A stretch of 41,756 bases of DNA from Candidatus Heimdallarchaeota archaeon (lineage in GTDB: Archaea > Asgardarchaeota > Heimdallarchaeia > JABLTI01): positions 1-41,756 of the forward strand of contig DXJV01000015.1 of NCBI GenBank assembly GCA_019056785.1, written 5' to 3'. The first letter of the stretch is position 1. The number at the start of each line of letters is the position of its first letter. Made by a program: the position numbers and the translations under genes. Positions 11,076 to 27,194 of this stretch are shown here, in pieces. The notes under the pieces were generated by a model that worked only from the letters and a program-made list of their open reading frames with translations, did no database searches and had not been told where the DNA came from.

Positions 11076-14000
11076 CTATTTTACACGCTCCATTTGACAA
11101 ACAGAGGCAACAAAGTCTTTGTTAGCAGTGGACCGAACGTTTAGAGTTAAACGGCTGTTTTTCTCGGGATGTTTTTCGCTGTTACGTACTTGTTCAGGAA
11201 GTTTCTCAATAGGGATTTGTAAGCTAATTTGCTTTTCTGTTAAATGTGTAATTGCCAAGTCGTGAAGATCAATATTTAATCCCACACCCAGCACTTTTGA
11301 AGCGGCTTCTTTTGCGCTCCAAATCTTCGCAAGCAGCGTATCGGAGATCTCAGCTTTTAATTTCTGAAGGAGAGCAAGTTCTTGTTTACTTAGCAATTCT
11401 TCGATCAAAATATTCGAACGTTTTTCTATTGCTTCAAGATCGATGCCGGTCATTTTCTCTGGGTGGACAATTCCGGCGGCAAAACCATTGCTATGAGTAA
11501 TAGATATTGAGATTGGTATTGCCTTTTTCCCTTGCTTAACATAAGGTTTGCCAAGAGAATCCTTTTCAATAAATAATTGATTAGGAATAAGTTTAGGATT
11601 TAATTGTTGCAATGCTTTCTTAATAGCAATAACTCCTGCGACCCACTCAAGCCTTCTCTTTTCAACGGAATAATTATGGAAGCGTGTCATTTCTACCTCA
11701 TGTAGAAAGTTTTGAAGGAATGACTCATCTTTTTCGATTTCTTTTTTTATGGTCTCAACAGAAACAACCTCAATTAATGCCTTTTTTGGCAAAGGAAAAA
11801 GCTGTTTCACTCGAGTGAGATGGACTTCATTCAGGGGGGCTATATTCGCGCCGAAATTAACTTGAGCGGTCTCATAATTTGCTGCTTGAAGAAGTAATTC
11901 CCCGCTCTTGCTTAGCACTTCAAATTGATAAACACTTCCGAAATTATTGTCAGCGTTTTTTCGTCCAACAACATAGGCTGGCTCTTCCGTCGCATCATAG
12001 AATTCCAGCAGCTTTATCTTATAGGGAAGGCCCATTTGCCGGCTGAGAACGAGGTCGTAGAACCCCATCGCTTGGAAACCTGCTTCAATGCTAAGTGGGT
12101 TTGCCAAAAGTTTTGTGAGCCCCCAGCTAAATTGCTTTTTCTCTGGGAGAGGGGCAATTTTACCGATAATTGCGTCACTCTTTTCAGCAACAGCTTCAAG
12201 GACTTGGAAGCGCTCTCCATGGGGGAGAATCTTATAAAGAAGGGATTTTTTCGCAAGATAAGGCAAAGTGGTTTTTGGCTTTGTTCGGCTACCTTTTTGA
12301 CGTTTGCCCAAAACTGCTTTTGCACTAAAGCGCTTTACTGGCAAACTAACCTTTTTTCCGTCTTTTATTTTGACAGTTTCAATTACAATTGCTGGCTCTG
12401 GCAAGGTTGTGAAGATTCGTGAAAAAATCGTTTGCTTTTCATTGTCTTTGAATTTAATTGCAGAACTAAATTCGACATTTTTTAACGCAGTAAGTTTCTT
12501 TTTGGGAAATGCAATGTCTGTTAATTCTGCAAATAACTCGATACCCATCACTCCCGGCAGATAAGGTATATTGTCAAACCGATGGTGGTCCAAATACAGA
12601 TCCGTTTCTAAACTGAACTCTCTTCTCGCACTAATTGAGCCATCGAAATTCCGTTTAATGCTACCAAGAAGAGGATAAATTTTTGGATTGACTTTAATAA
12701 ACGGCCCGGGTGATTCCAGCAATTCCCCAAGAACCCCAGAATAGATTACCTCGGGGTCTTGGCCGTATTCTAATTCATCAATAAATGCTTGAACGCCTTC
12801 CTCAACCTTTATTGGTGTGAGACCTTTTTGAAGGAGGATCTGCATAACTGACCCACGTGTCGCCATGCCGATTTCCGCCCAAGCTGACCAGCAAATTGCT
12901 GTTGCGCGCAATCCTTTCTTTCGCAATTGCCAGCAACTCTTTGAAAGATAATCATTGGCTGCAGCATAGTCCACTTGGCCAGCATTGCCATATCGCGCTG
13001 CTACAGATGAGAAACAAATGATAAATTTCAAACTTCGAAGATCAAGCGTTTCAATAAGGGTATCAAAACCCTTAACCTTGACATTATAAACATACTCGAA
13101 ATCTTCAAGACGCTTATCTTTGACTAACCGTGAGATTTCAATTCCGGCTGCGTGAACAACACCAGTGATTTTTTGGTGGAAGTCATTTTCAACCTTTTGA
13201 AGGACAGCAGCAAAAGCTTCAGATTGGCTCACATCAACTGAATAATATCTGACTTGCGAGCCTAAAGCAGTAAGTTCTTTCAGTGCCTTAAAGACCGCAA
13301 TTGCTTTCAAGGTTTTTGACCATTCACGTTGAATTTGGACAGGAGTGACTTTAATACCTTGTTCTTTCAAATGTGCGATATAACGATTCTTTTTCTCTTC
13401 TAACTCCTCTGCTGATAGTTGTGCAAGTTCTTCAATATTAGCTGGCAATTTGGTGCGACCAACAAGAGCGAGTTTCACAGCATATTTTTCAGCGAGTTTT
13501 TTAGTTATTTCAAAAGTTATTCCTTGAGCACCACCGGTGATTATAAGGAGGTCCTCTGAAGTCAATTGAAGTACTGGAGTCGCAGTTTTCTTGAGTGGCA
13601 TCTCAGGGGTGAGAAGAATTTGCCGTTCACCAGTTTCGGTATAAGCAACCTCTACTGCACCATCGCCGGTCATAAGTTCCTTCAAGACGTTTTTTGGTTC
13701 AGAAGTGGCTAAAACTCTAACAGCAAGGTCCTCTCGTTCTCTGGCGAAGGCTTTAGCAAAGCCTGATAGAGAGCCAAAAGTAGGTGAAGCTTTCGCCTTC
13801 CAGCCAAAGAATGTTGATGTTGGTTGAATGACAAGGAAGTAACCTCCTTCCTTAATAGTAATTTGTTTCGTTAGTTGAAAGAGAGCAGATGCAGTGTAAA
13901 GATGTCTTGTCTTTTTCGTTGACTTTGGTTCGATGAAAATCACGCCATCAACTTCTTCTGAGGACAGTTGCTCTGGCGAATGAAGAACTGTTTTAGCATC

Positions 14001-26456: not shown

Positions 26457-27194
26457 TTATCGTATCAAAGTTATGTCGCCATTACTAATTATTTCTTCTT
26501 TTCCATCTAATTCGATGATCAAGTCACCAGAATCAGTAATGCCTTTTTCAATACATTCAGCGCCCTTACCAAAGAGTTCGGTGAAGATTTTCTGCCCGAA
26601 AGTTAAGGAACGCTCTTTCCATTCTTGTTTCAAATCTCGAAGGTTATTCGTTTCCAGTTCCTCCATGACATTCGCAACAGCCCGGAGAATGAGGTCCTTA
26701 ACTAATTTTATTGACACTCTTTCTCCTTTGGCCTCGAGTAAAGAAGTAGCAATATTTCGAGTCTCATCGGAAAGTGTCTGCACTCGGATATTGACATTGA
26801 AACCTATTCCAACGACAAGATAATTTATTTCCTCATTCTGAGCATTCATGTCAATTAAAATGCCACCAATTTTCTTCCCATTCAACATGATGTCATTTGG
26901 CCACTTCACTTTGAAAGGCAACGCGAATTTTTCTTCAAGTAATTTAGCTATCTCAAGACCCAAACGAACAGAAAAGCCATGAAAGAGTTTAACAGGCAAA
27001 GGTTTCTGAATGATAACAGAGAGATACAAGCCCCCGACAGGTGATTCCCAGCGTCTCCCGGTTCGTCCCAAGCCTTTTATTTGTTTTTCGGCAATAATAA
27101 CAGTTCCATGAGCGTTTTGCTGGCTTTTAGCAATTTTGACAGCCAATTTTTGCGTTGATTCAACTTCGTAATGGATCTCTTCCTTGAAAAGCAT
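26457..27194 (-). CDS. birA: Biotin-protein ligase (no N-terminal HTH)
   Basis: VESTQ, Q.KGLGRTGRRWESP.GGLY, KWPND, KKIGGIL and GIGFNVN. Confidence 0.95.
   Translation of the reverse strand: MLFKEEIHYEVESTQKLAVKIAKSQQNAHGTVIIAEKQIKGLGRTGRRWESPVGGLYLSVIIQKPLPVKLFHGFSVRLGLEIAKLLEEKFALPFKVKWPNDIMLNGKKIGGILIDMNAQNEEINYLVVGIGFNVNIRVQTLSDETRNIATSLLEAKGERVSIKLVKDLILRAVANVMEELETNNLRDLKQEWKERSLTFGQKIFTELFGKGAECIEKGITDSGDLIIELDGKEEIISNGDITLIR

Follow-up and report, generated by a model that had tools for sequence, protein, structure and literature searches.

Can an Asgard archaeon make fatty acids of its own, and could such acids enter its glycerolipids? The question is raised by a gene cluster built around a 3590-aa megasynthase on a 41,756-bp contig (C70) of the metagenome-assembled genome (MAG) G000; the window analysed here is this entire contig. 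With 2.87 Mb in 102 contigs, the genome has a completeness of 82.5% and a contamination of 4%. An Asgard-type archaeal host is regarded as the ancestor of eukaryotes, whose lipids are nevertheless fatty-acid esters of the bacterial type; how and when this change of membrane came about is a long-standing problem. We favour the reading that the cluster represents a self-contained, mostly vertically inherited fatty-acid-type synthase system of a Heimdall-group Asgard archaeon, and we put the probability of this reading at roughly 0.6. Its core claim, namely that the type I fatty-acyl synthase of this archaeon is functional, appears highly probable from domain content and conservation. The whole route into glycerolipids would be a more tentative proposal, to which we give somewhat less than even odds.

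The synthase and its linked genes

The sequence-only reading had described a 3590-aa protein with ketosynthase (KS), acyltransferase (AT), acyl carrier protein (ACP), ketoreductase (KR), dehydratase (DH), enoyl reductase (ER) and phosphopantetheinyl transferase (PPTase) motifs, located 41 nt from a carboxyltransferase (CT) gene. Genes for biotin carboxylase (BC), biotin carboxyl carrier protein (BCCP) and an alpha/beta hydrolase were said to be transcribed divergently, with a biotin-protein ligase (BPL) closing the cluster. All the named synthase domains were found by Pfam and NCBIfam models with intact motifs, and the gene arrangement was as described. The features are as follows.

11076..21848, minus strand: megasynthase gene, 3590 aa, ER'-ER-KS1-AT-KS2-ACP-ACP-KR-DH-PPTase (open reading frame, Pfam, NCBIfam and motifs)
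20865..21848, minus strand: degenerate NMO/FabK-like N-terminal domain (ER'), aa 1-328 (Pfam NMO, 37.6 bits over aa 62-252)
19818..20864, minus strand: FMN-type enoyl reductase, aa 329-677 (PF03060, 85 bits; TIGR03151 FabK, 131 bits versus 19 bits for pfaD_fam)
18261..19649, minus strand: KS1, aa 734-1196, Cys944/His1078/His1116 (PF00109 and PF02801; motifs DAAC-ASS, HGTST, IGH)
16827..17792, minus strand: malonyl-type, FabD-like acyltransferase, aa 1353-1674 (PF00698, 173 bits; motifs GHSLGE, GAFHS)
14889..16571, minus strand: KS2, FabF-like, aa about 1760-2320, Cys2040/His2188/His2228 intact (alignment to FabF structures)
14559..14759, minus strand: ACP1, aa 2364-2430, Thr2394 at the phosphopantetheine site (PF00550)
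14253..14453, minus strand: ACP2, aa 2466-2532, Thr2496 at the phosphopantetheine site (PF00550)
12873..13544, minus strand: ketoreductase, aa 2769-2992 (PF08659, 136 bits; motifs TGGAQGIT, FSS, YAAAN)
11859..12674, minus strand: double-hotdog dehydratase of the polyketide synthase (PKS) type, aa 3059-3330 (PF21089 and PF14765; motifs HxxxNxxxxP, ExxxQ)
11160..11669, minus strand: Sfp/HetI-type phosphopantetheinyl transferase, aa 3394-3563 (PF01648, 59 bits, and 4PPT_N; motifs GIDLE, WSAKEAASK)
21890..23491, minus strand: acyl-CoA carboxylase carboxyltransferase, CT (PF01039, 646 bits)
23492..23670, no strand: divergent intergenic, putative promoter region between CT and BC (sequence inspection)
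23671..25146, plus strand: biotin carboxylase, BC (PF02786, PF00289, PF02785)
25104..25628, plus strand: biotin carboxyl carrier protein, BCCP (PF00364; biotinyl-Lys motif SMKM)
25651..26454, plus strand: alpha/beta hydrolase, candidate chain-release thioesterase (conserved triad and predicted fold)
26457..27194, minus strand: BirA-type biotin-protein ligase, BPL (TIGR00121, 175 bits, cut-off 83)
9089..10939, minus strand: 616-aa protein of no known family, downstream of the synthase (no Pfam match; an Atlas TPR-like lead only, score 0.84)

At the level of domains and motifs, a single polypeptide combines all activities of a fully reducing iterative cycle with its own PPTase, and every catalytic motif checked in the synthase was intact. 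The best NCBIfam stretch of KS1 corresponded to positions 9-469 of PfaA, the acyltransferase scored 257 bits against the fabD model TIGR00128 (cut-off 261), and the two-ACP stretch reached 47.2 bits against PF00550, above the gathering score. The Cys-His-His residues of KS2 were invariant in the 13 family members of alignment A1, which covers KS2 and ACP1. Judged by these residues, KS2 is an active-type beta-ketoacyl synthase and not a chain-length factor (CLF).

The CT gene ends at 21890 and the synthase starts at 21848, with 41 nt between them. Ahead of the divergent genes, an AT-rich TTTATAA element lies about 25 nt before the BC start, and we infer that this intergenic stretch is a promoter region. 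The true start of BCCP is probably an internal ATG. With CT, BC, BCCP (SMKM) and the ligase, the biotin-dependent acyl-CoA carboxylase set is complete, and the acyltransferase is of the malonyl (FabD/GAFHS) type. The hydrolase keeps Ser108, Asp198 and His227 invariant in six cluster-linked orthologues. Fold neighbours of its AF2 model (pLDDT 84) include the lipase TTL, seen with a monoacylglycerol intermediate, further esterases, and GrgF and DcsB, two PKS thioesterases that act in trans; this fits hydrolytic release of a free acid. The 616-aa gene was left outside the system because it is a neighbour only within the genus, being syntenic there and not in other families; its product is probably not part of the core system.

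That the system might be self-contained, as had been proposed, is borne out by the rest of the genome. The cluster holds the sole FabF/PKS-type KS, PP-binding and PPTase domains as well as the sole CT, BCCP and BPL genes found in G000, and no FabA/FabZ protein (PF07977) was found anywhere in this 82.5% complete assembly. A third PF00109 match in G000, on contig C47, was considered as a further KS and turned out to be the archaeal acetoacetyl-CoA thiolase of the mevalonate pathway.

The cluster is also conserved. Among relatives of the window's family (f1) and of Heimdallarchaeaceae (f2), two of the families f1-f6 of the class Heimdallarchaeia, the synthase was present in 11/11 and 10/10, respectively. 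Full-length orthologues in same-genus and same-family genomes share 57-62% identity in frames of 3574-3604 aa. Related or split forms occur in f2, f4, f5 and f6, and f3 gave weak matches only. All ten relatives inspected have CT immediately upstream of the synthase, and BC, BCCP, hydrolase and BPL remain linked across f1, f2 and f4 in variable order, with BPL linkage in f1 and f2. In f2, the hydrolase gene comes right after the PPTase end of the synthase; the f4 synthases are without the N-terminal ER. The persistence of this gene set across several Heimdallarchaeia families points to a conserved functional unit and not to a sporadic insertion, and comparison of these loci indicates that the cluster is old and mostly vertically inherited. 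A survey of the phylum, using the family-specific KS2-ACP stretch as query in a 301-genome sample, gave the following counts.

Families of the class: f1 8/10, f2 25/29, f3 0/21, f4 8/11, f5 1/1, f6 2/3
Other Asgard families: f11 0/76, f14 5/68, f17 0/19, f27 3/7

Several side observations concern the synthase in other places. In the closed genome of Ca. Heimdallarchaeum aukensis, the synthase region (G016:C1:472000-511000, loci L019/L020) consists of two open reading frames of 1506 and 2653 aa, in which the KS-AT stretch is repeated, as is the block of PPTase end, hydrolase and BCCP. The repetition may reflect either a genuine duplication or an artefact of assembly; the locus directly adjoins type III CRISPR genes (Csm6, RAMPs, Cmr3). 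Elsewhere in G000, a paralogue of the synthase DH region (G000:C47:73533-74616) is broken over three frames with TAA stops. Same-genus genomes encode an intact stand-alone protein of 420-555 aa with ~30-37% identity to the DH-PPTase end, which adjoins a PlsY gene in one of them (G011).

Relatives of the synthase and the possible fate of its product

What kind of enzyme is this synthase? The best curated model was PfaA (TIGR02813) with 935.3 bits, below its cut-off of 1010.1. Against solved structures, the KS-AT part came closest to bacterial PKS (CurL 437 bits, DEBS ~368 bits) and scored ~236 bits with animal fatty-acid synthase (FAS). A single-protein query found no relative. With alignment A1 searched against species-representative genomes, at least 591 loci were recovered, 47-55% identical over the KS2-ACP stretch. 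The bacterial loci came from Acidobacteriota, Anaerolineae, Myxococcota, delta-proteobacteria, Actinomycetota, Gemmatimonadota, Elusimicrobium minutum, Verrucomicrobiota and Calditrichota, and the archaeal ones from Thermoplasmatota, Heimdallarchaeota and Promethearchaeota. In a quick IQ-TREE analysis of KS1, all synthases with threonine-type carriers formed one clade (support 100) apart from ordinary PKS; within it, a 62-row Asgard group (SH-aLRT 81) was divided into three subclades that follow taxonomy. A midpoint-rooted FastTree of KS2 separated an Asgard clan from a large bacterial clan at 97. The Asgard clan included a small Spirochaete-labelled group, also with fused ER, and Thermoplasmatota were placed among bacteria. 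Because the KS trees are unrooted or midpoint-rooted and were made by quick IQ-TREE or FastTree runs, they cannot name the donor of a transfer between bacteria and Asgard archaea.

By architecture and similarity, the synthase belongs to the mostly bacterial Type R/S 'secondary lipid synthases' catalogued by Shulse & Allen 2011 (PMC3098273), who listed Type R in Koribacter, Solibacter, Elusimicrobium and Roseiflexus and Type S in Desulfobacterium autotrophicum HRM2. These are pfaA-like proteins of the order KS-MAT-'CLF'-ACP(3-6)-KR with a PPTase, the Koribacter cluster contains an acetyl-CoA carboxylase (ACC) gene, and the article mentions neither archaea nor a Thr site (PMC3098273). The order KS1-AT-KS2-ACPx2-KR matches KS-MAT-'CLF'-tandem ACP-KR, and a dedicated PPTase is shared, here fused at the C-terminus. 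The Elusimicrobium minutum locus (L066) and many Acidobacteriota loci are 47-55% identical over KS2-ACP; the KS2 tree unites the named relatives in one family, with Asgard as a separate clan, and the Thr carriers are common to both. In contrast to the catalogued types, a duplicated FabK-type ER, the DH and the PPTase are all fused in one chain here, KS2 (the 'CLF') keeps Cys-His-His, there are two ACPs instead of 3-6 (2-5 in the relatives found here), and a full set of CT, BC, BCCP, BPL and hydrolase is linked in an archaeal host. The Asgard form, with its fused ER pair, DH and PPTase, a putatively active second KS and the full ACC/BPL/hydrolase linkage, would thus be new within a catalogued family. 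Our literature searches, which did not cover subscription journals, found no paper describing this synthase in Asgard archaea.

Two further comparisons concern the PUFA synthase Pfa(A-E) and type I FAS. With the Pfa(A-E) system, the synthase shares the single chain of KS, AT, tandem ACP, KR and DH, and an FMN-type ER and an Sfp-type PPTase within the system. It differs by its score below the PfaA cut-off, by a FabK-like instead of a PfaD-like ER (131 vs 19 bits), by carriers with Thr instead of Ser, and by having no PfaB, PfaC or FabA-type dehydratase/isomerase domain; a polyunsaturated product is therefore not expected. Fungal and CMN-bacterial type I FAS and animal FAS likewise carry all activities of the reducing cycle on one or two chains, and fungal FAS has an FMN TIM-barrel ER and a fused PPTase, as here, but the domain order of all of these differs. 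No specific link to eukaryotic FAS was seen when KS-AT was scored against solved structures. On these comparisons, the nearest enzymes are bacterial Pfa-like and PKS enzymes, not eukaryotic FAS.

On the favoured reading, the carboxylase would make malonyl-CoA, and the fused PPTase would prime the two carriers on Thr2394 and Thr2496. KS1 and KS2 would share initiation and elongation, with KR, DH and ER fully reducing each round to give a saturated straight acyl chain, which the neighbouring hydrolase would release as free fatty acid. A FakA-like kinase with DegV/FakB-like binding proteins could then convert the free acid to acyl-phosphate, from which the many PlsY-type acyltransferases might ester-link the acyl group to glycerol phosphate, yielding membrane or mixed acyl/isoprenoid glycerolipids.

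Genes suited to the later steps are abundant. G000 encodes eight PlsY-like proteins (105-121 bits, three PlsY motifs kept), and f1 genomes have 4-13 PlsY genes each. DegV/FakB genes number 5-23 per genome in f1 (10 in G000), 9-15 in f2, 2-5 in f4-f6 and 0-1 in f3. Two of the PlsY genes in G000 adjoin DegV/FakB-family genes, and a fakA-like/DegV/plsY operon was found in seven same-genus genomes. Its kinase, comprising Dak2 and the FakA middle domain, gave scores of 334 bits for YloV and 245 bits for FakA. The BPL-CT-synthase cluster of the closed Heimdallarchaeum genome has a PlsY gene immediately next to it. The joint encoding of a Dak2/FakA-middle kinase, a DegV/FakB-like protein and PlsY resembles FakA/FakB-PlsY of Firmicutes. 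It differs in that the kinase is only ~320 aa long and without the C-terminal DegV-like domain, no NCBIfam score reaches its equivalog cut-off, the copy numbers of DegV and PlsY are greatly increased, and the operon lies outside the window and the G000 assembly. As a separate observation, an APH-family phosphotransferase (PF01636, 71 bits; L034:2173-3219, G000:C98) is encoded 10 nt after a PlsY-like gene; from this position it is a possible candidate for a lipid-related kinase.

The first committed steps of archaeal lipid synthesis show the reverse pattern. Geranylgeranylglyceryl phosphate synthase (GGGPS, PcrB) was found with 190-220 bits in almost every other Asgard family (f11 75/76, f14 66/68, f17 19/19); f3 reached no more than 42-54 bits, and f2 was marginal. 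In f1, GGGPS was found in 0/12 genomes with Pfam models and class-internal protein queries, and the class's own proteins as queries matched nothing in G000. Glycerol-1-phosphate dehydrogenase (G1PDH) of Heimdallarchaeum is a true EgsA (416 bits, cut-off 413), and used as query it found orthologues in f2 (10/10), f3 (14/14), f4 (3/3), f5 (1/1) and f6 (1/1); in f1, this class-internal query gave 0/12, with alcohol-dehydrogenase noise only. PF13685 matches in G000, tried as G1PDH candidates, were iron alcohol dehydrogenases. CarS is present in all families, G000 included (135 bits); G000 additionally encodes a polyprenyl synthase and a DGGGPS-like UbiA protein. From gene content, f1 appears to be without the first two committed archaeal lipid steps, with the later ones kept and fatty-acid handling genes multiplied. 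A non-homologous replacement of GGGPS and G1PDH in f1 is possible. The suggestion that such a cluster bears on the archaeal-to-eukaryotic lipid transition gains comparative-genomic support from the presence of PlsY, DegV and FakA together with the non-detection of GGGPS and G1PDH. A bolder version, which we consider speculative and rather doubtful, would have f1 drop G1PDH and GGGPS altogether. Its glycerolipids would then be made, wholly or at one position, from self-made fatty acids, by way of the Thr-linked phosphopantetheine synthase, hydrolytic release, a stripped-down kinase and multiplied PlsY, with CarS and the DGGGPS-like enzyme serving a hybrid or residual isoprenoid branch. If true, the lipid divide would have been crossed in nature by f1, a family of the same class as Ca. 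Heimdallarchaeum.

Could the synthase instead serve a specialised purpose? As a 'secondary' lipid or polyketide synthase, it would yield a special, minor long-chain compound (for example a hydroxy- or very-long-chain acyl compound, a glycolipid tail or a hydrocarbon precursor) instead of bulk membrane fatty acids, and FakAB-PlsY would handle scavenged fatty acids. We regard this as the main rival, a serious candidate though on balance an unlikely one. Bacterial holders of the synthase family generally also have type II FAS, which speaks for it, as do the Type R/S kinship, the PfaA match as best NCBIfam model, the PKS-type DH, the tandem carriers typical of Pfa, Hgl and similar systems, and the retained isoprenoid lipid genes. 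Moreover, OleABCD has been reported in Hodarchaeales (10.1101/2024.07.04.601786). The gene content of G000 argues in the other direction: no other KS, ACP or FabA/FabZ was found there that could make fatty acids, the genome nevertheless keeps 8 PlsY and 10 DegV genes, and its only carboxylase is dedicated to the cluster. Heimdallarchaeia families with the synthase are, furthermore, without detectable GGGPS, and Type S has been suggested as a possible core FAS in D. autotrophicum (PMC3098273).

Several points weigh against reading the cluster as a fatty-acid system that feeds glycerolipids. The DH resembles those of PKS rather than FabZ/FabA, and the catalogued relatives were named 'secondary lipid' synthases (PMC3098273). 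Downstream, neither the FakA-like kinase nor PlsX or PlsC was found in the 82.5% complete G000, GpsA was found in none of 41 genomes, and FakAB-PlsY could serve scavenged fatty acids. Retention of CarS, the DGGGPS-like UbiA and polyprenyl synthase implies that isoprenoid lipids are probably still made. The co-distribution is imperfect, too, as f14 (Loki-type) keeps GGGPS alongside the synthase, and the genomes of the lipid-gene survey are MAGs of 64-92% completeness whose related members are not independent samples. According to a passage of PMC13400652, the only cultured Lokiarchaeon showed only archaeal lipids. The stretch is contained in 23 DNA runs from 18 studies (sediment and hydrothermal-vent metagenomes) and in no RNA run, which says nothing either way on expression. 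Outside the class, the non-Heimdall Asgard genus g51 of f27 (G118, G122 and G224, the last a closed 4.4-Mb genome) has the synthase, and its three genomes gave no GGGPS match and no PlsY match (E <= 1e-15). In the sister genus g61, GGGPS and PlsY matches were obtained and the synthase was not found.

In the searched literature, the plsY and plsC genes are recognised in Asgard archaea with no fatty-acid source named (PMC6737245, PMC8813620, PMC13400652), only these two being named up to 2026 (PMC13400652), and archaeol bilayers have been predicted for Heimdallarchaeia (PMC12042123). Co-distribution of the synthase with the FakAB-PlsY-DegV expansion and with non-detection of GGGPS and G1PDH was not found in the searched literature. 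The cluster, the only machinery of its kind found in G000, offers a concrete, clonable candidate for a fatty-acid source in Heimdallarchaeia. Taken with the fakA-fakB-plsY operons, the large DegV and PlsY families and the non-detection of GGGPS and G1PDH in f1, it outlines a testable route from CO2/acetyl-CoA to ester-linked glycerolipid in an archaeon. For eukaryogenesis, it would show that complete fatty-acid machinery exists in archaea closely related to eukaryotes; this is no evidence of direct ancestry.

Threonine at the carrier sites

The sequence-only reading had regarded the system as ACP-dependent. The carriers themselves, as two PF00550 domains, were confirmed; the expected attachment residue was not. 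Both carriers read LGIDT-V, with Thr in place of the phosphopantetheine Ser. Thr2394 and Thr2496 align with the Ser of PigH ACPs and type II ACPs, and the attachment Ser of the conserved DS(L/I) motif is replaced in both carriers. Every same-architecture homologue has Thr, whereas all ordinary PKS matches have Ser. Across 80 loci from the family, we counted 255 Thr versus 3 Ser, and this count is not circular because the scan pattern ended before the residue in question. In some single proteins (P0049 and the Heimdallarchaeum locus L055), Ser and Thr are mixed among the tandem carriers, suggesting that the co-encoded PPTase can use Thr as its acceptor. The pattern makes Thr a candidate phosphopantetheine acceptor; that the fatty-acid reading relies on such a candidate residue counts against it.

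A protein whose carriers cannot be primed, and which is either inactive or works without phosphopantetheine, would be the alternative. E. coli ACP S36T is not known to be modified by AcpS, and the Thr sits exactly at the Ser position. Yet Thr is fixed in at least 80 loci from many phyla, alternates with Ser within single proteins, and is accompanied by a full set of other catalytic residues and by a dedicated PPTase, either fused to the synthase or encoded next to it. Moreover, an open frame of ten thousand bases has persisted at 57-62% identity across the genus. We therefore consider dead carriers improbable. A functional Thr acceptor would represent a cofactor linkage that we did not find described in the searched literature.

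Host genome and integrity of the contig

The proposed Asgard origin agrees with two lines of evidence. A protein search with residues 1-1200 returned same-architecture homologues named Heimdallarchaeota, Asgard group, Kariarchaeota, Hodarchaeota and Promethearchaeota/Lokiarchaeota. The class of the window is Heimdallarchaeia because a same-class genome, G016 (CP084166.1), is that of Ca. Heimdallarchaeum aukensis. Based on these names and relatives, the host is an Asgard archaeon of the class of Ca. Heimdallarchaeum, in family f1 rather than Heimdallarchaeaceae. The flanking genes are archaeal in character (BpsA, S-adenosylmethionine (SAM) decarboxylase, a TRAP-beta-like protein, Get3/ArsA and ThiI), and ~35 kb around the cluster are collinear in four same-genus genomes (G005, G008, G009, G010).

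Assemblies from public runs led to the same conclusion. Contigs from four runs of four studies span 8500-28400 in every bin at an even depth of 4-9x. Independent contigs bridge the junctions of the 616-aa gene with the synthase, of synthase, CT and BC, and of hydrolase, BPL, SAM decarboxylase and BpsA, with no joints reported. The GC content is 0.41-0.43 across synthase and CT (11000-24000) versus 0.36-0.39 in the flanks, in a genome whose contigs range over 0.35-0.425; this difference is mild and is outweighed by the synteny. A chimera or contaminant is thus excluded for practical purposes. Contamination by bacterial DNA, a chimeric assembly or a recent and sporadic insertion, as might be suspected from the mostly bacterial synthase family, the slightly raised GC and the Zixibacteria or Bathyarchaeia labels of some close homologues in public records, is very improbable given the collinear neighbourhood with archaeal flanks, junctions bridged at even depth, presence in 11/11 f1 and 10/10 f2 relatives (two closed genomes among them) and an own clan of Asgard sequences in the trees.

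A single base of the window, at 9054 between the ThiI-like gene and the 616-aa gene, is missing from all four public runs; this intergenic extra base probably reflects strain variation or a minor error of assembly. At a distance of a few kb from the cluster, the window encodes a protein that matches BatD and TRAP-beta (translocon-associated protein beta; gene at 31617-33152) and a Get3/ArsA-type ATPase (33698-34783), both of which fit an Asgard host with eukaryote-like membrane-protein handling.

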